Source: Alphaproteobacteria bacterium
GTDB taxonomy: Bacteria > Pseudomonadota > Alphaproteobacteria > MPNO01
Reading direction: 5' to 3'
DNA length: 64,000 bases
NCBI GenBank assembly: GCA_965231875.1
Contig: CBDDOM010000002.1
Coordinates: 2,627,942 to 2,691,941 of the forward strand
Positions 3,060 to 40,833 of this stretch are shown here, in pieces. A model generated the notes under the pieces. The model was not told the DNA's origin. It worked only from the letters and a program-made list of their open reading frames with translations, and searched no databases. Numbering within the stretch: position 1 is the stretch's first letter; every line of letters starts with the position of its first letter. A program made the translations under genes and the position numbers.

Positions 3060-3064
3060 CTCCG

Positions 3065-8705: not shown

Positions 8706-9158
8706 ATGCGCCGGGCGATCGCGCTCTCCTTCGCCATGATGCGCGCCGACCGGGGCGGCCCGTTCGGTGCTGTGATCGTCCGGGACGGGGCGGTGATCGC
8801 CGAGGGCTTCAACAGGGTCACGTCGGATAACGACCCGACGGCACACGCGGAGGTCACCGCCATCCGCGCGGCCTGCGCCGCGCTCGGCACATTCTCGCTC
8901 GAAGGCTGCGAGATCTACACCTCTTGCGAGCCCTGCCCGATGTGCCTCGCGGCGATCTACTGGGCGCGGCTCGACCGGATCTTCTACGCCAACACCCGCC
9001 AGGACGCGGCGCGTATCGGGTTCGACGACGATCACATCTATCGCGAGATCCCGCTTCCTCCCGAGCGCCGGGCGATCCCGATGAGCCGGGTGCTGGCCGA
9101 CGAGGCGGCGGACGCGTTTCGCGAATGGGAAGAAAAACCGGACAAGGTTCCGTATTGA
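8706..9158 (+). CDS. Nucleoside deaminase (CMP/dCMP-deaminase zinc-binding family)
   Basis: HAEVTAI and CEPCPMC zinc-binding motifs. Confidence 0.75.
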   Translation: MRRAIALSFAMMRADRGGPFGAVIVRDGAVIAEGFNRVTSDNDPTAHAEVTAIRAACAALGTFSLEGCEIYTSCEPCPMCLAAIYWARLDRIFYANTRQDAARIGFDDDHIYREIPLPPERRAIPMSRVLADEAADAFREWEEKPDKVPY

Positions 9159-9171
9159 CCGGGGATCGCGC

Positions 9172-17202: not shown

Positions 17203-18041
17203 CACCGGAAACCGCGCAGGCCGGCCGCGTCGCCGGCAAGGCGGTGCTGGTGACCGGCGCGGGGTCGATCGGGCCGGGCTGGGGGAACGGCAAGGCGGCC
17301 GCTGTGCTCTACGCCCGCGAGGGGGCGAAGGTGCTCTGCGTCGACCGCCGGCTCGACGCGGCCGAGGAAACCCGCGACATCGTCGCCGGAGAGGACGGCA
17401 GCGCCGTCGCGCACCGGGCGGACGTGACCGACGAGAGCGACATCGCGGCCATGGTCGGCGCCTGCGTCGACGCCTTCGGGCGGATCGACGTCCTGCACAA
17501 CAATGTCGGCGGCTCGGGTCCGGGCGCGGCGCTGATGGACGTGGCGCTGGAGGACTGGAACGACACCCTTGCCCGCAACGTCACCGGCGCCTTCCTCGCC
17601 ATGAAGGCCGCGATTCCGCACATGGAGGAACAGGGCGGCGGGGCGATCGTCAACATCTCATCGATCGCCGGACTCACCCATATCGGCGTGCCCTCGACCA
17701 GCTATTCGGCGGCCAAGGGGGCGCTCAACGAACTGACCAAGAACATCGCGATCCAGTACGCGGCGAAGAACATCCGCGCCAACTGCGTCGCGCCGGGGCT
17801 GATGAAGACCCCCTTCATCCTGCGCGAGAAGGACGGCGTTCCCAACCACATCCGCAAGGGCTACGCGACGCCCGAGGAATACCACGACGCCCGCGGCGCG
17901 ACCGTCCCGATGCGCCGCATGGGCGACGCCTGGGACGTCGCCAAAGCCGCCCTCTTCCTCGCCAGCGACGACGCCGCCTACATCACCGGCCAGTGCCTCG
18001 TGGTGGACGGAGGCCTGACGGCGACCAGCCCGGGGGCGTGA
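17199..18041 (+). CDS. SDR-family oxidoreductase
   Basis: KAVLVTGAGSIGPGWG Rossmann motif and NNVGGS. The start overlaps the upstream stop in an ATGA. Confidence 0.75.
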   Translation: MTPETAQAGRVAGKAVLVTGAGSIGPGWGNGKAAAVLYAREGAKVLCVDRRLDAAEETRDIVAGEDGSAVAHRADVTDESDIAAMVGACVDAFGRIDVLHNNVGGSGPGAALMDVALEDWNDTLARNVTGAFLAMKAAIPHMEEQGGGAIVNISSIAGLTHIGVPSTSYSAAKGALNELTKNIAIQYAAKNIRANCVAPGLMKTPFILREKDGVPNHIRKGYATPEEYHDARGATVPMRRMGDAWDVAKAALFLASDDAAYITGQCLVVDGGLTATSPGA

Positions 18042-18114
18042 AGGGCAGCAGGGTGCGTGGGCGGCCGAACGAAGTGGCCGGACGCCCGGCCATCCGCCGA
18101 TACCGCCAGCGGTC

Positions 18115-18459
18115 CTAACGGCCGAGGACGACGTCGACGCTGGCGAGCAGCAAATCGAGCTTGGCCGACGCGATGCGGCCTGTGCGTTCTTCGAGAAGAG
18201 CCCGGTCGAGAGCGACGATCTGTGTCGCGTTCGCGACGGAGTCTTTCGGCAGACCGGTCATCGCGGCGGTCAACAGCACGTTTCCCGGCGCGTCCGTCCA
18301 CCGCAAATTGCTCGTCAGCGGGACACAGACCGCCGTGGCCAACCGGCTCCGGTTCAGCGCATCGCCCTGGACGACGACGACCGGCCGGCGAAAGCCCGGC
18401 CCCGAACCCGTTGGCTCCGGCAATTCGGCCCAGCACACATCGCCCTGGGAGATCACCAT
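18115..18459 (-). CDS. Type II toxin, MazF/PemK family endoribonuclease
   Basis: 114 aa. GDVCWAELPEPTGSGPGFRRPVVVVQGD is the PemK/MazF signature. It overlaps the upstream small RHH gene by 7 nt. Confidence 0.7.
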   Translation of the reverse strand: MVISQGDVCWAELPEPTGSGPGFRRPVVVVQGDALNRSRLATAVCVPLTSNLRWTDAPGNVLLTAAMTGLPKDSVANATQIVALDRALLEERTGRIASAKLDLLLASVDVVLGR

Positions 18460-18713
18460 TCGGTGTTGGCGAGCACCCGCCTGCCGGCGGCGGCGAGGAA
18501 GGCGTCATCGTTCCCGTCGACCTCGCCGCACACCCGGTTCATTGTTTCGGTAACCTCGTCTTGCGCATGGCGCGCGAGATATTCGCCGAGTGCCGCCGCG
18601 TAGACTTCGCTTCGGGACCGCCGTCCCTGCGAGGCCAGTCGTTCGGCGCGTTCGAAAATGTCGTCGGGGATGGATACGGCTGTCTTCATACCCGCAGTAT
18701 GACCCCGTCCCAT
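18453..18713 (-). CDS. Type II antitoxin (ribbon-helix-helix / MazE-like)
   Basis: The small protein MKTAVSIPDDIFERAERLASQ has an N-terminal beta-strand plus helices typical of CopG/RHH antitoxins. The real start may be the internal Met at about 18689. Confidence 0.55.
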   Translation of the reverse strand: MGRGHTAGMKTAVSIPDDIFERAERLASQGRRSRSEVYAAALGEYLARHAQDEVTETMNRVCGEVDGNDDAFLAAAGRRVLANTEW

Positions 18714-18739
18714 GACCGGCGGTCAAGGGTTTTCCGGAT

Positions 18740-18897
18740 GACGTGCGGTGCGACCGTCCCAATGCGCCGTATGGGCGACGCCTGGGGCGTCACCAGGGCC
18801 GCCCTCTTCCTCGCCAGCGACGATGCCGCCCACATCTCCGGACAGTGCCTCGTCGTCGACGGCGGGTTCACGGCGACCAGCCCCGGGGGCGTGAGGC
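18740..18897 (+). pseudogene. Orphan 3'-terminal fragment of an SDR gene, duplicate of the 17199..18041 C-terminus
   Basis: About 155 nt at 85-88% identity to 17895-18045. It encodes [47 protein letters not shown] against [47 protein letters not shown]. A 1-nt insertion removes the stop. No N-terminal part exists. Confidence 0.7.
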
Positions 18898-19004: not shown

Positions 19005-19778
19005 CTACGCCAGCACCGTCCCCCCGTCGACCGATATCGTCTGGCCCGTCACGAAGGCGCTGGCATCCGACAGCAACCACATTGCGGTGCCGATCACGTC
19101 GTCCGGGGTCATGCTGCGGCGGATGATCTGGCCGTTCTTGATCACGTCGAGCGCGTTGTCGAGCTTGGCGGCGAAGAATTCGCGCGTGCCCTCGGTGATC
19201 ACCGCGCTCGGCGCCATCGCGTTGACCCGGATGTTGTCGCGGCCGATCTCGCGGGCGAGGCCCCGGGTGAGCCCGACCACCGCCGCCTTCGACGTGGTGT
19301 AGTGGAGCGCGTAGGGCATGCCGAAGCGCGCGGCGAGCGAGGCGATGTTGATCACCGACCCGCCGTCGCTCTCGCGCATCACCGGCACCACGGCCTTGCA
19401 GCAGTTCCAAATCCCCTTGACGTTGACCTCCATCGCGTCGTCCCACTCGCCGGGATCGATCGCCTCGAACCGCCCGCCGGTGAGCGCGCCGTAGAGCGCG
19501 GCGTTGTTGATCAGCCCGTCGATCCCGCCGAACGCTTCCTTCGCGGCGGCGGCCATCGCCGCGGTCGAGGCCTCGTCGCGCACGTCGAGCGGGACGCCGA
19601 TGCATTCGCCGCCCGCTTCCTCCACCGCCGCTACGGTCTCGTCGGTCGGGATCACGTCGGCCGCCACGATGCGCGCCCCGAGTTCCGCCGCGGCGAGCGC
19701 ATAGGCCTGGCCGAGCCCCCGCCCGCCGCCGGTGATCACCACAGTCTTTCCGTCCAGGGCAAACGCCTCGCCCGCCAT
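19005..19778 (-). CDS. SDR-family oxidoreductase
   Basis: KTVVITGGGRGLG Rossmann motif and NAA / YxxxK pattern. Start at MAGEA, with AAGGAG upstream on the minus strand. Confidence 0.75.
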   Translation of the reverse strand: MAGEAFALDGKTVVITGGGRGLGQAYALAAAELGARIVAADVIPTDETVAAVEEAGGECIGVPLDVRDEASTAAMAAAAKEAFGGIDGLINNAALYGALTGGRFEAIDPGEWDDAMEVNVKGIWNCCKAVVPVMRESDGGSVINIASLAARFGMPYALHYTTSKAAVVGLTRGLAREIGRDNIRVNAMAPSAVITEGTREFFAAKLDNALDVIKNGQIIRRSMTPDDVIGTAMWLLSDASAFVTGQTISVDGGTVLA

Positions 19779-19806
19779 CGTCATACTCCTTCGCTTGAGG
19801 TTGTCG

Positions 19807-20859
19807 TCAGTTCTTGAGCGGCGCGACGCCGGTCTGTTCGGCGATCCCGTCCAACTTCGCGCGCAGCGCATCCGGGATCGGTATGCCGTTCTCCTCGCGA
19901 TCCGCCAGGCGCGCCGCGCGGCCGTCTCCGGGCACCCGGACCGCGTCGAACCCCGGCATGACCTCGGAGCCGCGCATCTGGCCGGCCACCCGGTCGACCG
20001 CTTTCCCGATCGCCGCCGCGTCGCCGAACGCCGCGGGGTCGAGGGCGCAGATGAACTGCCCGGTATTGGCGGCGCGGTCGACATCGGCCGCATAGTCGAT
20101 CAGGTCCTCGCCCATCGCCGCGCCGTTGAGCGTGCCCGCGAGCAGCCCGATGACGAGGCCGAGCCCGTAGCCCTTGTAGCCGCCCATCGGCAACAGCAGT
20201 CCTTCCGAGGCGCGCGCCGGATCGGTGAGCGGGGTGCCGTCGCGCGCGACCATCCAGCCCTCGGGCATGGCTTCGCCGCGCTGCGCGACGGTCCTGATCT
20301 TGCCCATCGATGCGACGGTGGTCGCGAAATCCATCACCACCGGGGCGCCGTCCCCGGCCGGGATCGCGACCGCCAGCGGATTGGTGCTGAGCAGCAGGTC
20401 GGTCCCGCCCCAGGGCGGCATCTGGTTGCCGCCGCCGACCGCGCCGTAGATGCCGATCAGGCCGTGCGCGAGCGGCATCGCGGCGTAGACCGAGGCCGCG
20501 CCGGCATGGTTGCCGTTTCGCGTGCCGGCCCAGCCGATGCCGGTCCCGGACGCCTTGCCGATCGCGGCCCGGACGGCGTATTCGACCGCGAGGTGACCCA
20601 TCCCGTTGTCGCCGTCGACGACCGCGACCGAAGCCGTTTCCCGCAAAATTGCGATGTTGGGGGTCTTGTTGATGCCGCCGCTCCGGATGCGCTTCAGGTA
20701 ATCCGCCAGGCGGAAGATCCCGTGCGCATCGAAGCCGGTGCGGTCGGCGGCGACCATCAGCCGCGCCACGTCGGCCGCGTCGCCCCCGGGCAGGCCCTCC
20801 GCCGTCATCACCCCGGCGATGAAGCGTTCGAGCTCGCCGGCCGGGAAGCGCTCGTTCAT
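19807..20859 (-). CDS. Ldh_2-family oxidoreductase (malate/L-lactate dehydrogenase family 2; imino-acid reductase type)
   Basis: 350 aa. The overall pattern (GHLAVEYAVRAAI...GTNPLAVAIP...LPMGGYKGYGL) matches this family. GGAGG RBS. Start overlaps the DMT gene stop as ATGA. Confidence 0.7.
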   Translation of the reverse strand: MNERFPAGELERFIAGVMTAEGLPGGDAADVARLMVAADRTGFDAHGIFRLADYLKRIRSGGINKTPNIAILRETASVAVVDGDNGMGHLAVEYAVRAAIGKASGTGIGWAGTRNGNHAGAASVYAAMPLAHGLIGIYGAVGGGNQMPPWGGTDLLLSTNPLAVAIPAGDGAPVVMDFATTVASMGKIRTVAQRGEAMPEGWMVARDGTPLTDPARASEGLLLPMGGYKGYGLGLVIGLLAGTLNGAAMGEDLIDYAADVDRAANTGQFICALDPAAFGDAAAIGKAVDRVAGQMRGSEVMPGFDAVRVPGDGRAARLADREENGIPIPDALRAKLDGIAEQTGVAPLKN

Positions 20860-21749
20860 CTCGTCCTCCGTGTCTCGCGGTGCCACACATAGAGCCCGCT
20901 GCCGGTGACGATCAAGGCGCCGAGGATGCTGAATTCGTCCGGGAAGTCGCCGAACACCAGGAATCCCAGCGTGGTCGCCCAGATCAGCTGGCTGTAGATG
21001 AAGGGCGAGAGCACCGAGGCGGGCGCGCGCTCCAGCCCCTTGATCAGGAGGTAGTGCCCGAGCCCGAACAGGCACCCGGTCGCCGCCATCATGGCCCAGC
21101 CCAGCGCGTCGGGCGTCGTCCAGTCGAACGGGACGATGACAGACATCACCACGGTGCCGACGGCGGCCGACCAGAACAGGCTGGTCCGCGCGTGGTCGGT
21201 GCGCCCGGCCATCCGGGTCAGCACCTGGTAGAGCGCGTAGCAGACCGCCGTCCCGAGCGGCAGGATCGCCGCCCAGTGCATCACCCCGAGCCCCGGCCGG
21301 ATGATTACCATCACGCCCGCGAAGCCGACCAGGATCGCGATCCAGCGGCGGATTCCCACCTGTTCCTTGAGCATCGGGATCGAGAACGCGGTCACCAGCA
21401 ACGGCGCGAAGAAGTTGATCGCCACCGCGTCGGCCAAAGCGAGGTAACGAAGCGCGCCGAAGAAAAGAAGCGTGCCGAGCAGCAGGATCGCCGAGCGGGA
21501 GAATTGCAGCCAGGGGCGCGTCGTCCGCATCTGCGCGACGATGCCCGAACGCGCGAAGATCGCGAGGAACACGATGGCGTGGAAGACGTACCGTCCCCAG
21601 ACGATCTGCACCGTGTCGTAGTGCCGCGTCAGCAGCTTGACCACGCTCTCGCCGCAGCCGAACAGCGCGGTCCCGCACAGCATCAGGACGATGCCGACCC
21701 GGATGTCCCGCGCCGTGACGCCGCGCGACGGGGCGGTCGGCTCACTCAC
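20856..21749 (-). CDS. DMT-superfamily (EamA-like) transporter
   Basis: 297 aa and polytopic, with duplicated EamA-like halves. Confidence 0.7.
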   Translation of the reverse strand: MSEPTAPSRGVTARDIRVGIVLMLCGTALFGCGESVVKLLTRHYDTVQIVWGRYVFHAIVFLAIFARSGIVAQMRTTRPWLQFSRSAILLLGTLLFFGALRYLALADAVAINFFAPLLVTAFSIPMLKEQVGIRRWIAILVGFAGVMVIIRPGLGVMHWAAILPLGTAVCYALYQVLTRMAGRTDHARTSLFWSAAVGTVVMSVIVPFDWTTPDALGWAMMAATGCLFGLGHYLLIKGLERAPASVLSPFIYSQLIWATTLGFLVFGDFPDEFSILGALIVTGSGLYVWHRETRRTR

Positions 21750-22587
21750 CCCGATCTTGTCCGGGCCATCGAGCCTCTTGTCCCAGCCCCGACCACGCGG
21801 CCGGCGCCGATGCCGCCTCGGCCGCTTCTTCCGGCGCCAATGAGGGATCCCAGCGGACGCCGAGGAAGCGCCGCCCGGTCACCCCGTCCGACCCCCGGTC
21901 GAGCAGCCACCGGATGGGCGCCGCCATCGCCGAGGGCTGGATCATCGCCGCGCGGTCAGGCGAGGAGTCCGGCGGCACCATCGCGGTGTTGGCGGGCCCG
22001 CCGGGGATCAGAACGTTCACCGTGACTCCGGTGCCCTCGAGATCGCCGGCCCAGATCGCCGTGCTCGCTTCCAGCGCCGCCTTGGACGGCCCGTAGGGGG
22101 TCCATCCCGGCCGGGTCATGGTGTCGAGGCTGGTGGTCACGTTGACGATCCGCCCCCAGCCGGCTTCCCTCAGTTGCGGCAGGACCGCCTTGGCGAGCAT
22201 GAAAGGCGCCATCGCGTTGGTCTCCACGATGGTCCGCCAGCGCTCGTCGGTGACCTCCCAGAATTTCACCCGGTCGACGTAGTAGTTGGCACGGATGCTC
22301 GACTGGCCGATGCCGGCGTTGTTGACCAGCGCATGCACCGCGCCGAACTCGGCGACGGCGCGCTCCACGATGCCGGAGCAGGATCCGGCATCGCGGATGT
22401 CGGCCGCATGCGATGCGCTCCGGCCCCTCGGCAGCCTTTCCACGAGGGCGGAGAGCGCATCCTCGTTGACATCGACGGCGAGCACGCGCCCCCCGCCTTC
22501 GACGAGCGCTTCGGTCATCGCGGCGCCGAGGCCGCCGGCCGCGCCGGTCACGATCGCCACGACCTGGGAGAGATTTTCCGGTTTCAT
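21742..22587 (-). CDS. SDR-family oxidoreductase
   Basis: VAIVTGAAGGLG and NNAGIG motifs. Start at MKPENLS. Confidence 0.7.
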   Translation of the reverse strand: MKPENLSQVVAIVTGAAGGLGAAMTEALVEGGGRVLAVDVNEDALSALVERLPRGRSASHAADIRDAGSCSGIVERAVAEFGAVHALVNNAGIGQSSIRANYYVDRVKFWEVTDERWRTIVETNAMAPFMLAKAVLPQLREAGWGRIVNVTTSLDTMTRPGWTPYGPSKAALEASTAIWAGDLEGTGVTVNVLIPGGPANTAMVPPDSSPDRAAMIQPSAMAAPIRWLLDRGSDGVTGRRFLGVRWDPSLAPEEAAEAASAPAAWSGLGQEARWPGQDRGE

Positions 22588-22737
22588 GGTCCTGCTTTCT
22601 GGCCGCCGGGACGGCGGATGGGGCCGCGGGAAACTAGCCGCGCGCACGCCCACGGTCGAGACCTACGGGCGGCCGCGTCTGGACAGGCGGCGCGCCGTAG
22701 ACGATCATCTTCCGGAGGCATGACGGGAGAGGGCGAA

Positions 22738-23454
22738 ATGGCGCTGACTGCGGAAAAGGTGCTGGAACAGATCGACCGGATCCACAAGGCGAAGCCGATC
22801 TACGGCCATCCCCTCTGGGCGGGGATGCTGGACGACAGCCACTCGCTCGAGCAGATCCGCTATTTCTGCAAGCAGCACGGCATCCTGCCGCTCAACAACC
22901 ACAACTATCACGGCCGGCTCTACGTCATCTGCCCGGACCCCGCGTGGCGCGAGGAGATCGCCGAGGTGACCTACGAGGAGGCGACCGGCCGACTCCATGC
23001 GGACGGCGTCTCGCACCACAAGCTCTATCTCAACTACGCCGCCGCGATCGGCCTCTCCAGGGAGGAGATGTACGCGACCAAGTACTGCGCCGGCACGACT
23101 GCCTTCTTCGCCTATTTCTCCTATATCTGCGGCAAGACCTTCCTGGAGGGGGTGGCGTCGCACATGCTGGGCGGCGAGGCGCCGATCCCCGGCACCTACG
23201 GGCGGATCGCCGAACGCCTCAAAGCGCGGTTCGGGCTCGACGACAAGGGTGTCGCCTACTGGCATGTCCACGACACCGCCGACGAGGAGCATTCCGGCGT
23301 CGGCAAGAAGCTGCTCGACCAGTTCGCGACTACCCAGGCGGATCTGGAGCTGGTGATCGACACCGTGCAGACGACGGTCGACGTGATGCATCTGATGTAC
23401 GACGACATCTGGGCGCATATGCAGCGGATCGAGTCGGCAGAGGCGGCGGAATAG
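22738..23454 (+). CDS. PqqC/TenA-like (heme-oxygenase-fold) protein, paralog 1
   Basis: HPLWAGMLDDSHSLEQIRYFCKQHGILPLNNHNYHGRLY resembles the PqqC 'HPF..G.L....W..NRYY' region. GGGAGAGGG RBS before the Met at 22738. Confidence 0.55.
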   Translation: MALTAEKVLEQIDRIHKAKPIYGHPLWAGMLDDSHSLEQIRYFCKQHGILPLNNHNYHGRLYVICPDPAWREEIAEVTYEEATGRLHADGVSHHKLYLNYAAAIGLSREEMYATKYCAGTTAFFAYFSYICGKTFLEGVASHMLGGEAPIPGTYGRIAERLKARFGLDDKGVAYWHVHDTADEEHSGVGKKLLDQFATTQADLELVIDTVQTTVDVMHLMYDDIWAHMQRIESAEAAE

Positions 23455-23465
23455 GAGCGGAAGCG

Positions 23466-23855
23466 ATGGAGCGCGAACACCACAAGGGAACCTGGCAGGA
23501 GAACCGCTCGTTCTCCCCGGTCGTGACCACAACGGGCGGGCGCATGGTCTGGGCCGCCGGCCACGGCGCGCCGGCGGATGCGGACGGCAACTCGCTCGCC
23601 GGCGATTTCGCCGCCCAGACCCGCGAATCCTTCCGCCTGCTCGCGGCGACGCTCGAACGCGCCGGTGCGCGACTGGACGACATGGTGACGATGACCGTGT
23701 TCGTGATCGACTCGCGCTACGGCACCGAATTCACCGAGATCCGCAAGGAATTCTTCACCGACGGCTACCCGGCGAGCGCGCTGATCACCTGCGCCGGTTT
23801 CGCCCAGCCCGAGATGATGGTGGAGATCCAGGGCATCGCCGTGGTGGACGACTGA
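23466..23855 (+). CDS. RidA/YjgF-family enamine/imine deaminase
   Basis: 129 aa. The C-terminal PASALITCAGFAQPEMMVEIQGIAV is typical of RidA. AGGAGCGG RBS. Confidence 0.75.
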   Translation: MEREHHKGTWQENRSFSPVVTTTGGRMVWAAGHGAPADADGNSLAGDFAAQTRESFRLLAATLERAGARLDDMVTMTVFVIDSRYGTEFTEIRKEFFTDGYPASALITCAGFAQPEMMVEIQGIAVVDD

Positions 23856-23867
23856 GGAGGTCGAGAG

Positions 23868-24560
23868 ATGGCAGACAAAACCCCGTTCCGCAAGGAGCTG
23901 GAGGCCGCCGTGCTGGAGCGCCACTGCGCCAACCACCCGATGACCGAGAAATGGGCGAAGGGCGAGCTCGGGCGCCGCGCCTGTATGGGCTGGGCGGTCG
24001 AGCACTGGCACTGGATCTCCAACATGGTCCAGGAGGTCTCGTTCAACATCTGCGCCAAGGCGCCGCCCGACGTGGTCGAGCTGGAGCTCGAGAACTTCCA
24101 CGAGGAGACCGACCCCGAGCATTCGCATCTCGACATCGTGCTCCGCTTTGCCGAGGCGAACGGGGCCGACCTCGCCGCGGTCAGGACGGGGCGCGGCCTG
24201 CCGACGACGCGGTCATGGGTCGCCTGGCTCAAATGGGTCGCCAAGGAGCAGCCCTGGCACTGCGCCGTCTCGGCGATCCGCATCGGCACCGAGTCGCAGT
24301 CGCCGATGCTCTATTCCAAGGTCCTGCCGGCCTTGCGCGAGAACTACAAATATCCCGAGCCGGCGATCGAGCATTTCTGGCTCCACGCCGAGGTCGATAT
24401 CGAGCACGGCGACCGCGGCTTCGCGGCGCTGGAGCGCCACTGCACGACGCGCGAGATGAAGGACGAGGCGATCCACTGGGCGCGCGAGAGCGCGGCGATG
24501 CGCTGGTTCTATTTCGACGGAATCTTCCTGCACTACGAGAACGACTACGCGCTGGCTTGA
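23868..24560 (+). CDS. PqqC/TenA-like (heme-oxygenase-fold) protein, paralog 2
   Basis: HPMTEKWAKGELGRRACMGWAVEHWHWI in a PqqC-like pattern. ENFHEETDPEHSH holds an ExxH-like motif that paralog 1 lacks (it has EVTYEE there). GAGGAGG RBS. Confidence 0.55.
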   Translation: MADKTPFRKELEAAVLERHCANHPMTEKWAKGELGRRACMGWAVEHWHWISNMVQEVSFNICAKAPPDVVELELENFHEETDPEHSHLDIVLRFAEANGADLAAVRTGRGLPTTRSWVAWLKWVAKEQPWHCAVSAIRIGTESQSPMLYSKVLPALRENYKYPEPAIEHFWLHAEVDIEHGDRGFAALERHCTTREMKDEAIHWARESAAMRWFYFDGIFLHYENDYALA

Positions 24561-24561: not shown

Positions 24562-24652
24562 CCCTTCGATACGCGGCTTCGCCGCTACTCAGGATGAGGG
24601 TCTTCCGTTGTTTCCTCATCCCGAGTAGGCGCGACAGCGCCGTATCGAGGGA
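24562..24652. repeat. Family-B long imperfect palindrome, copy 1
   Basis: cccttcgatacgcggcttcgccgctactcaggatgaggg...cctcatcccgagtaggcgcgacagcgccgtatcgaggga. The arms are near-perfect reverse complements. It fills the gap between two convergent stop codons (24560 and 24663). Confidence 0.75.
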
Positions 24653-24662: not shown

Positions 24663-25976
24663 CTACAGCAGCGCCAGGCTGAGCACCGGGTAGGCGATGA
24701 TCAGGATCAGCACCAGCAGCATGATGAAGGCGAAGGGGAAGGCGCCGGTGAAGATGTGCGCGAGCGTGATCGACCGGTCCTGAATCGTGCTCTTGATGGT
24801 GAAGCAGGAGATGCCGAGCGGCGGGGTGAGCAGCCCGATCTCCGCGCCGATCACGGTGACGATGCCGAACCAGACGATGTTGCCGCCGAGCGCCTCGACC
24901 GAGCTCAGGAACAGCGGCACCACGATGAGGATGATGGAGGCGGTTTCGATGATGGTCCCGAGCAGCACCATCAGGATGACGTAAATCACCATCAGCCCGA
25001 CCATGTCGAAATTCATGCTGGCGAGCCAGTCGCTGAACTGGGTCGGCAGCGCGGCGACGCCGAGCATCCGGCTGTACATCGAGGCGGCGATGATCAGGAA
25101 CAGGATGGCGGCGGTGATCTGGCCGGTCTCGACCAGCACCCGCCAGAAGCCGCGCCAGGTCAGCCGCCGCTTCAAGACGCCGATGGCGAGCGCCCCGGCC
25201 GAGCCCGCCGCGCCCGCCTCCTCGGGCGAGAACCAGCCGGTGTAGATCCCGCCCAGCACGAGCACGACCAGGAACGCGACCGGGAGCAGCAGCCAGAACG
25301 TCTCCCAGAGGCCGATCGTCTCGCCCTCCTCGACGACCGCCGTGAGCTCCTTCTCGCTGATGAATTTCGGCATGACGCGGGCCATCAGGACGATGCCGAG
25401 GATGAAGGCGGTGGCGAGGATGATGCCCGGTATGAACCCGGCGATGAACATGTGGCCGACCGACACTTCGGCGACGATGGCGTAGATGATCAGCATCGAG
25501 GACGGCGGAATCAGCATGCCGAGCACGGACGAGCCCGCGACCACGCCGACCGAGAACTGCCGCGTGTAGCCGAAGCGGCGCATCTCCGGCACCGCGATGC
25601 GGGTGAACACCGAGGCCGAGGCGATCGACGAGCCGGTGATCGAGGCGAACAGCGCATTCGCCGCCACCGTCGCCATGCCGAGCCCGCCGCGCACCCGGCG
25701 GAACATCTGGTCGGCGACCTTGTAGACGTCGGCGCCGAGCCCGATCTCGCTGGCGACGATCCCCATCAGCGCGAAGAGCGGGATATTGGCGAACACGGCG
25801 TGCGCGATGGTGTCGTGGGTGGCCGCGGCCAGCAGGCTGATCGCGATGTCGATCGAGTCGCGGTAGATCCAGACCCCGATGAAGGAGACCAGGCCGAGCG
25901 CCACGGCGACGTGGATGCCGGCATAGATCAGGACGAGGATGGCGACGACCGACGCGATCCCGACTTCGACGCCCAC
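24663..25976 (-). CDS. dctM: TRAP transporter large permease subunit
   Basis: 437 aa and polytopic, in the DctM family pattern. Co-operonic with the Q and P subunits. Confidence 0.8.
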   Translation of the reverse strand: MGVEVGIASVVAILVLIYAGIHVAVALGLVSFIGVWIYRDSIDIAISLLAAATHDTIAHAVFANIPLFALMGIVASEIGLGADVYKVADQMFRRVRGGLGMATVAANALFASITGSSIASASVFTRIAVPEMRRFGYTRQFSVGVVAGSSVLGMLIPPSSMLIIYAIVAEVSVGHMFIAGFIPGIILATAFILGIVLMARVMPKFISEKELTAVVEEGETIGLWETFWLLLPVAFLVVLVLGGIYTGWFSPEEAGAAGSAGALAIGVLKRRLTWRGFWRVLVETGQITAAILFLIIAASMYSRMLGVAALPTQFSDWLASMNFDMVGLMVIYVILMVLLGTIIETASIILIVVPLFLSSVEALGGNIVWFGIVTVIGAEIGLLTPPLGISCFTIKSTIQDRSITLAHIFTGAFPFAFIMLLVLILIIAYPVLSLALL

Positions 25977-25982
25977 CGCGGC

Positions 25983-26537
25983 TCAGCCCTCCGCCGGGCC
26001 GGTCATGGAACGCCAGTGGTCGGCAAGCATGATCGCGAACTGCACCATGGTGACCACCACCGCGATGACGATGATCAGCGCGACCGGCCAGACCGGGGCG
26101 GTGAACATGCCCTCGACGCCGACATAGTAGTCGTTCTCCCAGGACTCGATGAAGAAAGGCACGCTGCCCCAGATGATCAGCCCCATGAAGACGGTGCCGA
26201 GGAGGAAGGTGGCCACGGCCATCCCGTGACCGGCCCTGGGGCTGCGCCGCATCACCTGGTTGAACAGCCCGTCCGAGCGGGTCAGCACGCCCTGGCGCAG
26301 CGAATCCGCGAGCTGCATGAAGACGATGCCGATGATCGAGATCTCGATCATCTCGATGACGCCGATGATCGGCGCGTTGAATGCCGAGCGGCTGATCGCC
26401 TCGGCGTTGATCAGCAACATCAGCACCACGATCCAGCACGAGCCGGCGGCGTTCATGCCGCCGACCAGCGAGGTGAAGGCGCGGACCGCCGCGTTCCGGG
26501 GACGGACGTCCCCGGTGCGCGGCGCGCTATCGGTCAA
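25983..26537 (-). CDS. dctQ: TRAP transporter small permease subunit
   Basis: 184-aa four-TM protein between dctP and dctM. Confidence 0.65.
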   Translation of the reverse strand: MTDSAPRTGDVRPRNAAVRAFTSLVGGMNAAGSCWIVVLMLLINAEAISRSAFNAPIIGVIEMIEISIIGIVFMQLADSLRQGVLTRSDGLFNQVMRRSPRAGHGMAVATFLLGTVFMGLIIWGSVPFFIESWENDYYVGVEGMFTAPVWPVALIIVIAVVVTMVQFAIMLADHWRSMTGPAEG

Positions 26538-26540
26538 ACG

Positions 26541-27620
26541 CTACTCCTTGTCCCAGTGCCGGATGATGGGCTGTTTGGCGGCCCGCATCTTGTCCATGTA
26601 GGCGGTCATCAGCTTGGTGCCGGGAAGCCCCTGTTTGTCGAGTTTGCCGGCCCAGTCCTTGGCGATATTGGGCATCGTCTTGGCCCAGTTCTCGCGCGCC
26701 GCCTGCGACATCTGGATGATCTCGCCGCCCTTCGCCTTGTAATTGGCGTAGGCCTTTTCGGCGTCGTCGATCGCCTGCTGCGCAGTATGGTCGCGGTAAT
26801 CGGCGGAGACCGCGTGGATCACGTCGCGCACCGCCGCGGGCAGCCGCTTGTAAGCCTTCACGTTCATCGTCAGCGCCTTGGAATTCGCCGTGCCGATATC
26901 GGCCTTGAGCATGAACTTCGCGCCCTCGACCAGCTTGAAGGCCACCGCCGCGTCGGTCCACAGCATCGAGCCGTCGATCGCCCCGGTCTTGAACTTGTTG
27001 TAGTAGTGGACCATCGAGCCGATCACCGGCGTCGCGCCGGTCCCCGTGAGGTAGCGCATGTTGATCCCGGCGCCGGCGATCTTGAGCCCCTTGAACTGCT
27101 CCAGCTTGGTGATCCGGTCGCGGAAGAACATCTGGTAGGTGTCGATCACCGAGAAGCTCGACAGCAGGACCTGGTTGTATTTCATCCAGGCCTCTTTCAT
27201 CGCCGGAAACTGCTCGGCGAGCTCGTCGACGGTGCGCGACAGCAGCACCGGATCGGCGGTCACGAACGGCGTCACATAGGCGACGGCCTGCATCGGCACC
27301 TTGTCCTGGTGGAACACGCTGGTGACGACGCCGATGTCGCCGAGCCCCTTCTGCATGCCGGTCATGACGTGGCGGACCTTGACGATCTGCCCGGCGAACG
27401 CCTTGTTCCAGTTGATCTTGTATTCGCCCGACTTGGCGAGCCGCTTGTCGACCTCCGGAATCAGGTAGGCGAGGAACGTCCTCACCTGGAGCGCGCGCGG
27501 CGGGTAGCCATCGACCGCGGTGAGCGAGATCGTCTTCTGGGCGTGGGCGGCGGGCGCCGCGAGCAGGATGGTCAGCGCCGCGCCCGCGAGCGCCGCCGTC
27601 CCGGTATTGCCGAAACGCAT
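26541..27620 (-). CDS. dctP: TRAP transporter substrate-binding protein
   Basis: MRFGNTGTAALAGAALTILLAAPAAHA signal peptide on a roughly 330-aa DctP-like domain. GGGAGA RBS. The long Arg-rich N-terminal extension of the ORF was trimmed. Confidence 0.75.
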   Translation of the reverse strand: MRFGNTGTAALAGAALTILLAAPAAHAQKTISLTAVDGYPPRALQVRTFLAYLIPEVDKRLAKSGEYKINWNKAFAGQIVKVRHVMTGMQKGLGDIGVVTSVFHQDKVPMQAVAYVTPFVTADPVLLSRTVDELAEQFPAMKEAWMKYNQVLLSSFSVIDTYQMFFRDRITKLEQFKGLKIAGAGINMRYLTGTGATPVIGSMVHYYNKFKTGAIDGSMLWTDAAVAFKLVEGAKFMLKADIGTANSKALTMNVKAYKRLPAAVRDVIHAVSADYRDHTAQQAIDDAEKAYANYKAKGGEIIQMSQAARENWAKTMPNIAKDWAGKLDKQGLPGTKLMTAYMDKMRAAKQPIIRHWDKE

Positions 27621-27724
27621 GATTCTTCTCCCTGTAGAACGCCGGCAATCCGAAACCCACCGGCCTGGTCGCGAAAGTTTAGCGGACCCCGAACCGCGCG
27701 AACAGGCGCGCGCCTGTTCGGGCG

Positions 27725-28099
27725 CTACTCCGCGGCGGAATCGAGCACGCTCTGCGGCGTGGAAGAGACGATCTCCGCGTAGGTCGGCACGAACGCGCCC
27801 TGCTCCAGGTCCTCGATCAGGGTGACGAATTCGAGGTTCATCGCGGCGAGCTGCTGGCGGATCTTCGCGTGCACCTCGATGTCCGACCATTCGCCGATCA
27901 GATAGAAATGGTCCGGATCCTCGGTGTCGCGGCACAGCACCCCGTCCTTCACCTGGGCCGGCGATTTGTGCATCGGGTTACCGTCGGAATAGTCGAACTC
28001 GTCGAACTTCTCGATGAATTCGTCCCCGGCGCCCGGCTTTACCCGGAAATCGTAGACGTGGAAGTAGTTCCCCTTGGCGGCAAGCGCGACCAGCGGCAT
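27725..28099 (-). CDS. ABM-domain (antibiotic-biosynthesis-monooxygenase-like) small protein
   Basis: 124 aa. YFHVYDFRVKPGAGDEF...HFYLIGEWSDIEVHAKI is a ferredoxin-like ABM pattern. Strong GGGGAGAAGG RBS. First gene of the TRAP operon. Confidence 0.5.
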   Translation of the reverse strand: MPLVALAAKGNYFHVYDFRVKPGAGDEFIEKFDEFDYSDGNPMHKSPAQVKDGVLCRDTEDPDHFYLIGEWSDIEVHAKIRQQLAAMNLEFVTLIEDLEQGAFVPTYAEIVSSTPQSVLDSAAE

Positions 28100-28409: not shown

Positions 28410-29462
28410 GTGCTGCTCAGGAACCAATGGTACGTCGCAGCCTGGTCTGAGGATGTCGGCCGGACGCCGCTCGGCCGGGTGCTGCTGAACGAGTACGTCG
28501 TGCTTTTCCGCGGGCTGGATGGGACGGTCGTCGCGCTGGAGAACCGCTGCGCGCACCGCAACCTGCCGCTGTCCGAGGGGCGGCTGATCGGCGACGAGGT
28601 CGAATGCGGCTATCACGGGCTGGTGTTCGGCCGCGACGGTGTCTGCACCCACGTTCCGGGACAGGAGGACGTGCCGGGCTGGGCAAGGGTCAAGTCCTAT
28701 CCCGTGGCCGAACGCGACCGCTGGGTGTTCGTCTGGATGGGCGACCCGGAAGACGCCGACCCCGCCCTGGTTCCGGACTACCACGCGAAGCTCGCCGATC
28801 CCGACTGGTACGCGGTCACCGGCCAGACGCTGGTCAAGGGCGGCTACCGGCTGGTGCTCGACAACCTGCTCGACCTCTCGCACCTCACCTACGTCCATTC
28901 GTCCACCACCGGGAACCGAGCCCTGGCGGAGGAGGCGACGCTGATCGTCGAGACCGGGGACGATTTCGTCCGCGTCACCCGCTGGATGGAGGGGATCCCG
29001 CCGGCGCCGGCCTTCATCCAGTACACCGGCGACGACGGGCCGATCGACCGCTGGCAGGTCTCGAAATACATCCCGCCGTCCTACATCGACATCTGCAACG
29101 GCTCGACCGCGGCGGGCGAGGGGCTGCCGCAGGAAGAACGGCCCGGGAGCCAGGGGCGCTGGGGCTTCGTCGTCTACCACGCGCTGACGCCCGAGACCGA
29201 GACCGCCACTCACCAGTTCTACGCGGTGGCGGGCCACCGCTCGATGGTGCCCTCCCACATGGAGGCGCTGTTCACCGAGCAGATGATGGGGGTGCTCGCC
29301 GAGGACCTCGTGGTCTACGAGGCCCAGCAGCGCGCGATCGACCTCGACCCGGAGATGAAGGGCGAGGACGTCAACCCGCGCGGCACCATCCCGGCCGACG
29401 ACCCCCTGCTCCGCATGCGGCGCATGATCCGCCGGCTGCACGGCGAGGAGCAGCGGGCATGA
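28410..29462 (+). CDS. Rieske [2Fe-2S] non-heme-iron oxygenase, VanA/GbcA-like alpha subunit (single-component type)
   Basis: CAHRNLPLSEG...CGYHG Rieske CxH...CxxH motif and a C-terminal mononuclear-iron domain. Apparent GTG start. Confidence 0.75.
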   Translation: MLLRNQWYVAAWSEDVGRTPLGRVLLNEYVVLFRGLDGTVVALENRCAHRNLPLSEGRLIGDEVECGYHGLVFGRDGVCTHVPGQEDVPGWARVKSYPVAERDRWVFVWMGDPEDADPALVPDYHAKLADPDWYAVTGQTLVKGGYRLVLDNLLDLSHLTYVHSSTTGNRALAEEATLIVETGDDFVRVTRWMEGIPPAPAFIQYTGDDGPIDRWQVSKYIPPSYIDICNGSTAAGEGLPQEERPGSQGRWGFVVYHALTPETETATHQFYAVAGHRSMVPSHMEALFTEQMMGVLAEDLVVYEAQQRAIDLDPEMKGEDVNPRGTIPADDPLLRMRRMIRRLHGEEQRA

Positions 29463-29481: not shown

Positions 29482-29967
29482 GTGACGCAGGACCTTCCCG
29501 AACTCGACCACGAGCGCTTCCTGCGCCTGACCTTCGCGCTCGCCGAGAGGTCGCGGCGCGAGGGCAACCATCCCTTCGCCGCGATCCTGGTCGGACCCGA
29601 CGGCGATATCCTGATGGAGGCGATGAACGCCTTCGGGGTCGAGGGCGACTCCACCGGCCACGCCGAGCGCACGCTGATGACGCGGGCCTCTATCGCCTAC
29701 GGAGCCGATTTCCTCTCCCGCTGCACCATGTACGCGAATGCCGAGCCCTGCGCGATGTGCGCCGGCGCGGCCTACTGGGCCGGAATAGGACGGGTGGTCC
29801 ACGGGATGAGCGAGAAGGCGCTCAAGGCGCTGATCGGCCCGCACCCCGAAAACCTCACCCTCGATCTCCCATGCCGCGAGGTATTCGCCGCCGGACAGCG
29901 GAAGGTCGAAGTCGTCGGGCCGTTGCTGGCGGAGGAGTCCGCCAAGGCTCACGAGGGGTTCTGGTAG
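29482..29967 (+). CDS. Nucleoside deaminase (CMP/dCMP-deaminase zinc-binding family), paralog 2
   Basis: HAERTLM and EPCAMC zinc-binding motifs. GTG start 20 nt after the Rieske gene stop. Confidence 0.7.
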   Translation: MTQDLPELDHERFLRLTFALAERSRREGNHPFAAILVGPDGDILMEAMNAFGVEGDSTGHAERTLMTRASIAYGADFLSRCTMYANAEPCAMCAGAAYWAGIGRVVHGMSEKALKALIGPHPENLTLDLPCREVFAAGQRKVEVVGPLLAEESAKAHEGFW

Positions 29968-33039: not shown

Positions 33040-33303
33040 ATGGCAAACATAAAATCGGCCAAGAAGCGGACGCGCCGCAACGCCCGCCGCGCCGATATCA
33101 ACGGCGCCCGCCGCGGCCGTGTCCGTACCTATGTGAAGAAGGTCGAAGCCGCGCTCGACGAGGGCAACAAGACCGCGGCGGAAGAGGCTCTCAAAGCCGC
33201 CCAGCCCGAGCTGATGCGCGGCGTATCCAAGGGCATCCTTCACCGCAACATGGCCGCCCGGAAGGTCGCGCGGCTGAACGCGAGGCTCAAGGCTCTCGGC
33301 TAG
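33040..33303 (+). CDS. rpsT: 30S ribosomal protein S20
   Basis: [17 protein letters not shown]... is the S20 signature. 87 aa. Confidence 0.9.
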
Positions 33304-33913
33304 AGCCTGTCCGACTCCGGAGAAACCGTTCCCGCCGCCATCCCGAATCCAACACGGCCGGCGGCGGCGGGGAACTGGAGGCGCTGCAAACTATCCCCGA
33401 TTTCCACAGCGGGACTAATGGCCGACGGAAGCCGCGCTGTCCTTCGCTTTGCGCGCTTCTCGCGCCGACCGAGCCGCCCGGCGGGCGACTTTTTTTCGCA
33501 ATAATTCGTCCGACCGGCCACGCCGGCGTTGCAAGTCTCTCCCGGGGCAGCTACTGTTTTGCAGTTGGGCAGCGTGGGGATGTCCTCGAAACAATAAAAA
33601 AACAGGCAAGACATTCTCTCTACTTGCGAAATCCGCGCAATACTATCGCAACACGGGACGAATACCTGACGATCGGTGTCGTTTTATTTCCTCAAAATGA
33701 GGACGGGCTAGCTTTGGGGCCAAGGTGAGCGGGTTGGAATCGCTGATACGAAACGGGCCTTGGGCCGGTCCGACGTGCATCGGATCGATGTTGGGCCGGC
33801 GGTCGCCGGCCGGTAACAAAGGCGCGGCGGCTATCGATGTGAATCGTTCGGCGAACGGTCGCGCGCTCGTCCTGTTTCCCACGAACGAATCCTGATTCCG
33901 GCGGGCGCGAAGC
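33304..33913. promoter_or_regulatory. dnaA upstream region: candidate oriC / dnaA autoregulatory region
   Basis: A 610-bp non-coding gap in an otherwise densely packed region. It has a locally AT-rich stretch (about 33585-33700: ...gaaacaataaaaaaacagg...tcgttttatttcctcaaaatgagg...). Only weak DnaA-box-like 7/9 matches, for example atttccaca at about 33405. Confidence 0.3.
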
Positions 33914-35326
33914 ATGGACTCGCGGATATCTGCGCAATGGGCACGGGTCAGGGGCTTGCTTCGCGCCGAAGTCGGCGACTCGTCCTATCGCAGTTGGCTC
34001 AAGCCGCTGACGCTGCTCGGCGTCGACGGGCATGTGGTGCGCGTCGGAACGCCGACCCGTTTCATGCGGGACTACGTGAACGAGAATTTCGCCAAGCGCA
34101 TCCTTGAGCTCTGGATCGACGAGAACGACGCGATCGAGAAGCTGGACGTCGAGATCCAGGTCGAGCCGGCCAAGCGTGAGCGCAAGCGTTTGGCGGCGAC
34201 GCCGGCCCAACCGCCGGCACAGAGCCCCAATCCGACCGATAGCGCAGCTGTTGCCGCCGCGGCCAGACCCAACGGCAACGCGGACGACGGCAACGGGGGA
34301 GAAATCGGCGGTCCGCTCGATCCGCGTTTCGTCTTCGGGAACTTCGTGGTCGGCAAGCCCAACGAACTCGCCTATGCGGCGGCGCGCCGGGTCGCCGAGT
34401 CGCCGACCGCGACCTACAACCCGCTCTTCCTCTATGGCGGGGTGGGGCTCGGCAAGACGCATCTCATGCACGCCATCGGCTGGCACATCCGCAAATGGCA
34501 TTCCAACCGCCGGGTGGTCTACCTGTCGGCCGAGAAGTTCATGAACGAGTTCATCCGGGCGTTGCGTTTTCGGGACACGATGGCGTTCAAGGAGCGGTTC
34601 CGGTCGGTCGATGTGCTGATGATCGACGACGTCCAGTTCATCAACGGCAAGGAAAGCACCCAGGAAGAATTCTTCCATACTTTCAACGACTTGGTCGGAA
34701 ACAACCGGCAGGTGGTGGTGTCGGCCGACAAGTCGCCTTCCGATCTGGAAGGCATGGAGGAGCGGCTTCGCTCGCGGCTCGGCTGGGGGCTGGTGGCCGA
34801 TATCCATGCGACGACCTGCGAATTGAGGGTCGGCATCCTGCAGTCCAAGGCGGAGCATCTCGGTGTCGAGGTATCGCCCAAGGTGCTCGAATTCCTCGCC
34901 CACAAGATCACCACCTCGGTGCGCGAGCTGGAAGGTGCGCTCAACCGGATCGTCGCCCACTCGACGCTGGTCGGGCGCGACATCACGCTCGAAACCTGTC
35001 AAGAGGTGCTGCAGGACCTCCTGCGCGCGCATGAGCGCCGCGTGACGATCGAGGAAATCCAGAAACGGGTGGCGGAATATTTCAACATCCGTTTCACCGA
35101 CATGCATTCGGCGCGCAGGTCGCGCGCCGTCGCCCGGCCCCGCCAGGTGGCGATGTATCTCTCCAAGATGCTCACCCCGCGGTCCCTCCCCGAGATCGGC
35201 CGCAAGTTCGGCGGGCGCGATCACACGACCGTCATGTACGCCGTCCGCAAGGTCGAGGACCTTCGGCAATCCGACCCGAGCTTCGACGAGGACGTGGAAC
35301 TGATCCGCCGAATGCTCGAAGCGTAG
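33914..35326 (+). CDS. dnaA: Chromosomal replication initiator protein DnaA
   Basis: AAA+ Walker A (GGVGLGKTHL). The C-terminal DNA-binding domain reads MYLSKMLTPRSLPEIGRKFGGRDHTTVMYAVRKV. 470 aa. Confidence 0.95.
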   Translation: MDSRISAQWARVRGLLRAEVGDSSYRSWLKPLTLLGVDGHVVRVGTPTRFMRDYVNENFAKRILELWIDENDAIEKLDVEIQVEPAKRERKRLAATPAQPPAQSPNPTDSAAVAAAARPNGNADDGNGGEIGGPLDPRFVFGNFVVGKPNELAYAAARRVAESPTATYNPLFLYGGVGLGKTHLMHAIGWHIRKWHSNRRVVYLSAEKFMNEFIRALRFRDTMAFKERFRSVDVLMIDDVQFINGKESTQEEFFHTFNDLVGNNRQVVVSADKSPSDLEGMEERLRSRLGWGLVADIHATTCELRVGILQSKAEHLGVEVSPKVLEFLAHKITTSVRELEGALNRIVAHSTLVGRDITLETCQEVLQDLLRAHERRVTIEEIQKRVAEYFNIRFTDMHSARRSRAVARPRQVAMYLSKMLTPRSLPEIGRKFGGRDHTTVMYAVRKVEDLRQSDPSFDEDVELIRRMLEA

Positions 35327-35527
35327 TACGGCGGTCGTTTCCGGCATCCGGGCATGCCGCGCGGAACGCGTGATACTTCCCATTGCAGCAACAGGTTCTG
35401 CTATAGTGGCTCCGGTGCGCGCGGCGCTTCGTTCGGGGCGCAATCGAGGTGCCGGACGCCACCCGCCGGTTCGGCGGAACACGCCTGATCCGGACGGAGA
35501 TTTTCCTCAAACGGGGATCCCGGGACG

Positions 35528-36646: not shown

Positions 36647-36696
36647 CCCTCCGAGCGCAGGAAACCCGGGAGAACGCATACGCGGGGGCGACGGCC

Positions 36697-40833
<4,137 letters not shown>

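Follow-up and report, generated by a model that had tools for sequence, protein, structure and literature searches.

A gene trio of two CADD-like HDO proteins and an arginine-less Rid protein in an alphaproteobacterial genome: candidate modules for aromatic or N-heteroaromatic acid breakdown

A tight gene trio whose members recur elsewhere in conserved pairs

We analyzed a 64,000-nucleotide stretch of DNA (hereafter the window; contig CBDDOM010000002.1 of assembly GCA_965231875.1, positions 2,627,942 to 2,691,941), a segment of an alphaproteobacterial chromosome with 68% G+C whose proteins are 95-97% identical to those of Defluviicoccus-like metagenome-assembled genomes (MAGs). Three plus-strand genes fill exactly the interval 22738-24560: two paralogs of the heme-oxygenase-like (HDO) superfamily, named here HDO1 and HDO2, with a Rid-family gene between them (Table 1). 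Comparison with about 170 loci related to HDO1 or HDO2 indicated that HDO1 with Rid, and HDO2 with an ABM-domain protein or a luciferase-like monooxygenase (LLM), are pairs conserved across lineages, while the whole trio is confined to one Defluviicoccus-like MAG clade. Within the trio 12 nt separate each pair of genes and a GGAG-type ribosome-binding site precedes each gene. These are real genes and not chance open reading frames, since relatives at 55-97% identity are found in hundreds of contigs. A preliminary description made from the sequence alone had outlined a tight trio, a divergent SDR/EamA/Ldh_2/SDR operon, a convergent operon of an ABM protein and the TRAP transporter DctPQM, and a Rieske oxygenase and a deaminase beyond; gene coordinates and Pfam matches agreed with this layout.

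HDO1 and HDO2 are predicted CADD-like enzymes with complete metal sites

Both outer proteins had been placed in the heme-oxygenase-fold, PqqC/TenA-type class, and this assignment was confirmed by matches to PF14518 and by AlphaFold2 (AF2) models compared using Foldseek. For the models of HDO1 (pLDDT 89) and HDO2 (pLDDT 94) the best match in the PDB was CtCADD from Chlamydia, with TM values of 0.80/0.88 and 0.85/0.90, respectively, at about 20% identity in each case. PqqC, UndA, BesC, FlcD, HrmI and TenA followed, and the seven-helix heme-oxygenase-like fold was recovered for both proteins with CtCADD, PqqC, UndA, BesC, HrmI and FlcD at a Foldseek probability of 1.00. Profile searches of solved structures were topped by 4-aminobenzoate synthase (9pj4; 3.5e-14 for HDO1 and 4e-23 for HDO2) and CT610 (7.5e-11 and 2e-14). 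The two families are homologous to each other (hhalign probability 98%).

The CADD ligands E81, H88, E142, H174, D178 and H181 align with E81, H93, E147, H178, D182 and H185 of HDO1, invariant in 85 of 85 relatives, and with E80, H87, E142, H173, D177 and H180 of HDO2, likewise present in 85/85 relatives except for E142 (84/85). A 3His/3carboxylate ligand set is the defining mark of the HDO superfamily (PMC13108848), and we classify both proteins as predicted CADD-like HDO enzymes with a complete site. The metal motif had previously been seen in HDO2 only, a distinction that is lost now that HDO1 is found to have the full set. The site is predicted to hold Fe/Fe or Fe/Mn, and chemistry with O2 would be expected of it.

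CtCADD and NePabS, self-sacrificial 4-aminobenzoate synthases within the HDO superfamily, are the closest structural and sequence relatives of both proteins, with the seven-helix fold in common and the same 3His/3carboxylate ligands at nearly identical residue numbers. They differ in their low identity (about 20%), in a genomic setting that for HDO1 and HDO2 appears catabolic and not folate-related, and in the self-sacrificial residues of CADD, Tyr27 and Lys152, which are replaced in both window proteins. HDO1 has an invariant W27 at the Tyr27 position and an Ile aligned to K152; in HDO2 the equivalent position 26 is T in 66/85, W in 14/85 and another residue in 5/85 sequences, and position 152 is V, L, M or I. 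With these residues missing and TIGR04305 scores of 62.0 and 63.7 bits against a cut-off of 200, assignment as CADD-type 4-aminobenzoate (pABA) synthases was rejected. PqqC, the name given to many HDO1 and HDO2 relatives in the JGI annotation, was rejected as well (TIGR02111, 29.6 and 33.7 bits against a cut-off of 240). PqqC is a cofactorless PQQ synthase that has the heme-oxygenase-like fold in common with HDO1 and HDO2 (TM about 0.8) but no metal site; pqqABDE are not found near HDO1 or HDO2, and the window cluster and all loci examined lack pqq genes. No NCBIfam equivalog was found for any protein of the trio.

A further comparison is with BesC (a 4-Cl-lysine fragmenting HDO), HrmI, SznF and RohS, which use a dimetal center and O2 to oxidize amine-bearing substrates. 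BesC-type HDOs were detected by fold only (TM about 0.75, 13-17% identity); all four are biosynthetic and none is known to have a Rid partner.

The likeness of HDO1 and HDO2 to TenA lies at the level of the fold only (Foldseek; TM 0.6-0.8). We considered whether the two could be TenA-like salvage enzymes that hydrolyze aminopyrimidines or break down thiamin without a metal, in concert with binding proteins of the NMT1/ThiY type. PF03070 does match the N-terminal half of HDO2 (residues 17-141 only), and NMT1/THI5-like binding proteins with an ABC transporter accompany HDO1 paralogs in locus L089 and 12 other loci. However, PDB profile searches with either protein returned no bona fide TenA chain at E<=1, so that the thiaminase II assignment was dropped and the salvage function raised in the preliminary description as the competing possibility receives no backing from sequence similarity. 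The PF03070 score of HDO1 (21.4) falls under the gathering cut-off of 22, the invariant six-residue metal site has no part in TenA chemistry and there are no thi genes beside the trio in the window. We consider such a role very improbable. A non-enzymatic function, either as regulators or in buffering iron or oxidative stress, to which some database names ("TenA family transcriptional regulator") might point, is equally hard to credit for proteins with no DNA-binding domain and an invariant ligand set of the active-site type, whose genes lie consistently between enzymes and transporters.

The central protein is a Rid-family member with serine in place of Arg105

The middle protein has the YjgF/Rid fold (PF01042) in common with RidA and RutC but differs from them in falling below the cut-offs of both (TIGR00004, 45 bits against a cut-off of 106) and in the residue at a key position: its PAS motif aligns to the PAR motif of YabJ, TTHA0137 and PH0854, putting Ser in place of Arg105. 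In RidA the substrate carboxylate is bound by this arginine, whose exchange for Ala leaves almost no imine hydrolysis (PMC4433059). Serine occupies this position in about 10% of RidA-like proteins, with consequences described as unknown (Niehaus et al., PMC4433059). Because Arg105 is replaced and the cut-offs are missed, a canonical RidA was rejected and the original label of RidA imine/enamine deaminase is unjustified. The arrangement does recall the Rid-amine oxidase gene clusters (Niehaus et al. 2015, PMC4433059), in which a Rid gene is likewise clustered with a possible imine-generating oxidase; there the partner is a flavin amine oxidase or a PLP enzyme, whereas here it is a dimetal HDO.

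HDO1 recurs with serine-type Rid proteins

A metagenome scan with HDO1 yielded 79 loci. In 16 loci that do not belong to the trio clade, HDO1 and a Rid gene are no more than 2 kb apart, in three arrangements: on the same strand directly downstream, convergent and adjacent, or convergent beyond a beta-propeller gene. Without exception, the Rid proteins of these loci carry Ser in place of Arg105 (motifs GPAS, FPCS and YPAS). The commonest divergent neighbor of HDO1 is a gene of the formaldehyde-activating GFA family (19/76 loci). Other neighbors include alpha/beta-hydrolases (26 loci), NitT/TauT-type ABC transporters with NMT1-like binding proteins (12-15 loci), LLMs and molybdenum (Mo) hydroxylase large subunits (9 loci each), and two-domain VOC extradiol-type dioxygenases and aldo-keto reductases (8 loci each). 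The Mo enzymes could be aldehyde oxidoreductases as readily as ring hydroxylases. An Ldh_2 gene lies directly downstream of HDO1 in L148, L160 and L162, and in L088 HDO1 is followed by a Rieske ferredoxin and an extradiol dioxygenase. In L089 (1339-10699) a single transporter cluster holds five HDO1 paralogs of 232 aa each, whose genes alternate with those for NMT1-like binding proteins, ABC transporter components, alpha/beta-hydrolases and an FAD oxidoreductase. L106, L111 and L151 carry two to four HDO1-family copies.

HDO2 recurs with ABM, LLM and Rieske proteins

Scanning one genome per GTDB species identified 93 relatives of HDO2, and the loci of the best 80 were examined. All 80 come from MAGs, of Alphaproteobacteria, Binatia, Chloroflexota and Thermodesulfobacteriota. 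The family forms 393 clusters at 90% identity; among 1.84 billion representatives about two full-length members remain at 50% identity and only 22 reach E<=1e-30, and identity between phyla is 57-74%. This compactness suggests strong constraint, recent horizontal spread or both. In a plasmid collection we found no HDO1 relative, and the only HDO2 matches were 31%-identical paralogs in Skermanella, Cupriavidus (an unannotated record) and Caballeronia; on the Skermanella plasmid the paralog is followed by three ferredoxins and a reductase.

The complete HDO1-Rid-HDO2 order was present in 13 of the 80 loci (L001-L012 and L068), with HDO2 at least 82% identical to that of the window. In OZ244893.1 both HDO1 and HDO2 are present, 3.1 Mb apart. 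The expectation that the trio would stay linked across genomes was therefore borne out for the HDO1-Rid and HDO2-ABM/LLM pairs but not for the trio as a whole. Mo hydroxylase genes adjoin the trio in the nearest relatives outside the window clade; in one of them the trio is also bordered by genes for an FAD ring hydroxylase, a nucleobase permease and a protein of the creatininase family.

Where HDO2 occurs without HDO1, its partners vary with the lineage. Loci of marine Alphaproteobacteria encode a Rieske protein, hydantoinase A and B, a DPD-like protein, MarR, LLM, HDO2, FAH, LLM, MBL and GlcDE proteins; the Rieske proteins that head these clusters are orthologs of the window protein (62-67% identity). 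In Binatia and Thermodesulfobacteriota an amidase, two Amidohydro_2 proteins, a ferritin-like protein, a CoA-transferase and an FlK thioesterase are encoded upstream, and HDO2 is followed by a bicupin, TctCAB, an SDR, a NicX homolog and TauD. The bicupin is most like 5-aminosalicylate and gentisate 1,2-dioxygenases (333 and 277 bits). Other loci carry TctC binding proteins, isochorismatase-type amidases, Mo hydroxylases, a ChrR-type cupin or a second HDO2 paralog.

Several immediate neighbors recur. ABM orthologs, 56-64% identical to that of the window, lie immediately upstream of HDO2 in L032 and L033, one of these contigs being from Chloroflexota, and an LLM is directly upstream in 8 loci, L170 among them. 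Downstream, FAH follows directly in 15 loci and a 5-aminosalicylate/gentisate-type bicupin occurs in 15 loci, while NicX homologs are found in 10. Two loci have intermediate orders: in L027 a Rid protein 78% identical to that of the window is followed by Rieske, LLM, a membrane protein and HDO2, with HDO1 missing, and L170 reads HDO1-Rid-LLM-HDO2, its LLM being 59% identical to the LLM found upstream of HDO2 in the marine group. Together with the recurrence of Ldh_2 beside HDO1 and of TRAP, TTT or ABC transporters as common neighbors, the ABM and Rieske orthologs that travel with HDO2 uphold the early association of the trio with uptake and oxidation. The neighbors also comprise Mo hydroxylases and extradiol dioxygenases, amidases and alpha/beta-hydrolases, and regulators of the MarR or GntR type. 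Purine, creatinine, pyrimidine and sulfonate pathways, indicated by hydantoinase, creatininase, DPD-like, TauD and Xan_ur_permease neighbors, were each rejected as suiting one subset of loci only.

A separate observation concerns the Binatia and Thermodesulfobacteriota loci L055-L079, where a 215-aa ferritin-like or HDO-like protein with two E..H motifs is encoded about 2.5-3.3 kb upstream of HDO2 in 12 loci. Its Pfam matches are faint (PF14518 at 6e-4; MiaE_2 and DUF455). Because it recurs in 12 loci, this group C cluster would include a second helical-bundle metalloprotein.

These distributions bear on the possibility that the trio is an obligate unit, in which two PqqC-like proteins, one metal-dependent and the other free of metal, produce alpha-imino acids that are hydrolyzed by a canonical RidA and reduced by an Ldh_2 imine reductase. 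The tight operon, the recurrence of Rid beside HDO1 and the three loci with Ldh_2 directly downstream of HDO1 are all compatible with it. Yet both HDO proteins have full, invariant metal sites, the Rid protein lacks the arginine that would bind an alpha-carboxylate, the window Ldh_2 is nearer to sulfolactate and malate dehydrogenases than to DpkA (192 against 106 bits), and the trio is restricted to one clade with the two HDO genes unlinked elsewhere. We regard an obligate trio of this kind as quite unlikely.

Flanking operons and other features of the window

The divergent SDR-EamA-Ldh_2-SDR operon (19005-22587, minus strand) has gene overlaps of 4-8 nt. Its Ldh_2 protein reached no NCBIfam cut-off; the scores were 192 bits for sulfolactate dehydrogenase, 192 for malate dehydrogenase, 155 for ureidoglycolate dehydrogenase and 106 for DpkA. 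A DpkA-type imino-acid (Pyr2C/Pip2C) reductase was thus rejected for this protein, and the imino-acid reductase of the preliminary description has to be given up. On the other side, the ABM-DctP-DctQ-DctM operon (24663-28099, minus strand) converges on the trio. All three TRAP subunits are present and adjacent. The DctP family showed no clear ligand preference, and PDB matches were too weak to infer a ligand from solved structures (best 4n6d, 1.6e-12). The nearest solved structure to the Rieske protein is the dicamba O-demethylase DdmC (1.8e-51).

Table 1. Positions of the trio, its flanking genes and nearby sequence elements in the window.
Feature	Position	Strand	Details
SDR, last gene of divergent operon	19005-19784	-	adh_short_C2, 1e-60
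Ldh_2-family dehydrogenase	19807-20859	-	PF02615, 1e-103
EamA/DMT transporter	20856-21749	-	PF00892, 2.5e-26
SDR, first gene of divergent operon	21742-22587	-	adh_short, 1e-41
Weak sigma-70-like promoter match	22680-22708	+	Upstream of HDO1; 9/12 positions, consensus match only
HDO1	22738-23454	+	238 aa; PF14518 Haem_oxygenas_2, 6e-19 (Pfam)
Rid-family protein, Ser for essential Arg105	23467-23855	+	129 aa; PF01042, 1.1e-19, 71 bits
HDO2	23868-24560	+	230 aa; PF14518, 4e-19 (Pfam)
Nested palindrome, about 90 nt	24563-24651		Between convergent HDO2 and dctM stops; -56.9 kcal/mol, z -5.4
TRAP large membrane subunit DctM	24663-25976	-	PF06808, 8e-79
TRAP small membrane subunit DctQ	25983-26537	-	PF04290, 4e-9
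TRAP solute-binding protein DctP	26541-27620	-	NF037995, 66.5 bits (cut-off 50)
ABM-domain protein	27725-28099	-	PF03992
VanA/DdmC-type Rieske oxygenase	28410-29462	+	Rieske and VanA_C domains
CDA-fold (TadA/guanine-deaminase-like) deaminase	29482-29967	+	PF00383, 2e-19
rpsT, dnaA (33914-35326), dnaN, recF, gyrB	33040-40294		Downstream of cluster

The palindrome that follows HDO2 has a second copy at 58267-58370, the copies being 80% identical, and is likely a bidirectional terminator or a REP-like element. With dnaA 10 kb downstream of the trio and the rpsT-dnaA-dnaN-recF-gyrB genes coming after the cluster, the putative catabolic island lies within about 10 kb of the chromosomal replication-origin gene set.

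Further genes were noted elsewhere in the window. On the minus strand, 58529-63999 encodes a NicX homolog (7cn3, 2,5-dihydroxypyridine dioxygenase, E 8e-82), a Rieske beta subunit, an AndAc-like Rieske alpha subunit, a 2Fe-2S subunit and a Mo hydroxylase large subunit. This region resembles PicD, PicB and PicA of Alcaligenes faecalis and is a candidate pic/nic-type cluster for pyridine-carboxylate degradation. A further Mo hydroxylase large subunit is encoded at 54008-56347. An alpha/beta-hydrolase, LLM, alpha/beta-hydrolase module lies at 1029-3886, 20 kb from HDO1. In marine Rhodospirillaceae, loci of the L083 type pair HDO1 with a 427-aa LLM, to which the LLM of this module is 46% identical. 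Within 8709-10884 a second CDA-fold deaminase is encoded directly upstream of an adenine deaminase (9172-10884).

Two toxin genes were also noted. A PemK/MazF toxin gene (18115-18459, minus strand) and a putative antitoxin gene (18453-18713, minus strand) are flanked by copies of the 150-nt 3' end of an SDR gene (17893-18041 and 18745-18894, 88% identical). Because the 3' end of the upstream SDR is duplicated on both sides, a cassette insertion within 17893-18894 is suggested; judging by gene spacing, the relative L005 lacks the cassette. The second toxin gene, of the VapC-type PIN class, is found at 51139-51576 and has a small open reading frame upstream.

Discussion

The reading that we favor, at a probability of roughly 0.4, is that two modules that are separate elsewhere were joined by a lineage-specific fusion in the Defluviicoccus-like clade, and that both act in the breakdown of aromatic or N-heteroaromatic acids. 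One module would consist of HDO1 and the serine-type Rid protein. The other would combine HDO2 with the ABM protein, a 356-aa LLM and/or a VanA-type Rieske oxygenase. Each would form part of uptake-and-degradation clusters for aromatic or N-heteroaromatic carboxylic acids, a proposal drawn from the position of both modules among carboxylate transporters, Mo hydroxylases, ring-cleavage dioxygenases, FAH and hydrolases. Gene structure, fold, ligand conservation, the loss of the Rid arginine and the patterns of gene co-occurrence are established by the analysis; metal loading, O2 chemistry, the substrate, the order of steps and the catabolic role itself are inferred from them.

According to this proposal, the acid would be imported by the TRAP system. 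The dimetal center of HDO1, with O2, may then oxidize the amine-bearing carbon, either by C-N dehydrogenation or by a C-C fragmentation like that of BesC, to leave an imine or enamine without an alpha-carboxylate, which the serine-type Rid protein would hydrolyze to a carbonyl and ammonium. We base this step on three observations: BesC, a characterized HDO, releases NH3 and formaldehyde via an imine; the Rid protein has lost the residue that binds the alpha-carboxylate; and GFA is the commonest divergent neighbor of HDO1. Chemistry of the BesC type would account for both the Rid partner and the GFA neighbor. HDO2 and the ABM protein would carry out ring oxygenation, which elsewhere may feed ring cleavage of the gentisate/5-aminosalicylate or 2,5-dihydroxypyridine type followed by FAH hydrolysis. 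The carbonyl or hydroxy-acid products might finally be processed by the SDR and Ldh_2 enzymes.

Known pathways offer a partial parallel. The pooled neighborhoods of HDO2 supply the downstream enzymes of the mab 3-aminobenzoate pathway (PMC9584955) and of the pic/nic pathways (bioRxiv 10.1101/530550), namely a bicupin dioxygenase, a deaminase, an FAH hydrolase, a NicX-type dioxygenase, Amidohydro_2 decarboxylases, amidases and Mo hydroxylases. Hydroxylation in the known pathways falls to a flavoprotein (MabA, NicC) or a Rieske system (PicB); here the corresponding place in the gene order is taken by HDO2.

Several points weigh against this breakdown proposal. No single HDO locus contains a complete known pathway, and the window cluster itself is without a ring-cleavage dioxygenase, FAH, GFA, a ferredoxin or a reductase. 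In nine marine genomes HDO2 follows the housekeeping genes fpg-ubiE-ubiB-coaBC-dut-moeB with no catabolic neighbors. All close relatives of HDO1 and HDO2 come from MAGs, their contexts are heterogeneous, and with no more than some five or six independent lineages among them, the statistics of co-occurrence are weak. At the level of chemistry, imine-hydrolase activity is undemonstrated for Arg-less Rid proteins (PMC4433059), characterized HDOs act biosynthetically on amino or fatty acids (PMC13108848), and no HDO is known as an aromatic-ring hydroxylase or an amine oxidase. The EamA exporter of the divergent operon would equally suit a biosynthetic product.

This last point belongs to a different explanation, that the operon is biosynthetic and the HDO proteins tailor an amino-acid-derived molecule, for example by N-oxygenation or desaturation, with the product or a cofactor precursor exported by EamA. 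Only about a dozen HDOs have been validated, all in natural-product or cofactor biosynthesis (PMC13108848), the closest solved relatives of HDO1 and HDO2 are pABA synthases, and the housekeeping surroundings of HDO2 in the nine marine genomes could be read in the same way. We nevertheless consider a biosynthetic operon unlikely: among the roughly 170 loci there are no NRPS, PKS, RiPP or other scaffold genes, the neighbors are importers, hydrolases, Mo hydroxylases, ring-cleavage dioxygenases and FAH, and the sacrificial Tyr27 and Lys152 of CADD are missing.

Nothing is new about the fold, the ligand set or the superfamily. Literature searches covering HDOs in catabolism, degradation or gene clusters found no paper on the HDO1 or HDO2 clades, and a 2026 review of HDOs lists biosynthetic functions only (PMC13108848). 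Given this, and with no curated family model for them, neither clade appears to have been described before, and the same goes for their catabolic setting, the constant association of HDO1 with an Arg-less Rid protein and the confinement to uncultured bacteria. The view that the gene combination matches no described pathway, already voiced in the preliminary description, is consistent with the absence of an NCBIfam equivalog and of a literature match, and with relatives that are all MAGs. It is possible, though we hold it doubtful, that HDO1 and the serine-type Rid protein perform a new O2-dependent deamination by a dimetal center, that HDO2 is the first ring oxygenase among the HDOs, with a part in degrading aromatic or N-heteroaromatic acids, and that the two are the first catabolic members of the superfamily. 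The trio is a good experimental lead and not a solved pathway.

If this bolder reading is true, amino groups would be removed by a dimetal center instead of flavin, copper, quinone or PLP. HDO1 would be an amine oxidase or a fragmenting enzyme with a dedicated hydrolase for imines that lack an alpha-carboxylate, which would give Arg-less Rid proteins a function. These HDOs would be widespread in uncultured marine, sponge-associated and soil bacteria. The pairing of HDO1 with such a Rid protein provides a concrete, testable context for a Rid class of undescribed function. Two strongly conserved HDO clades in uptake and degradation clusters would extend the superfamily to catabolism and to new O2-dependent C-N or ring chemistry. 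Overall, since the best 80 of the 93 genome matches are all MAGs and the plasmids of isolates hold only 31%-identical paralogs, the HDO1 and HDO2 families are essentially absent from cultured organisms and may mark a metabolism that culture-based biochemistry has missed.

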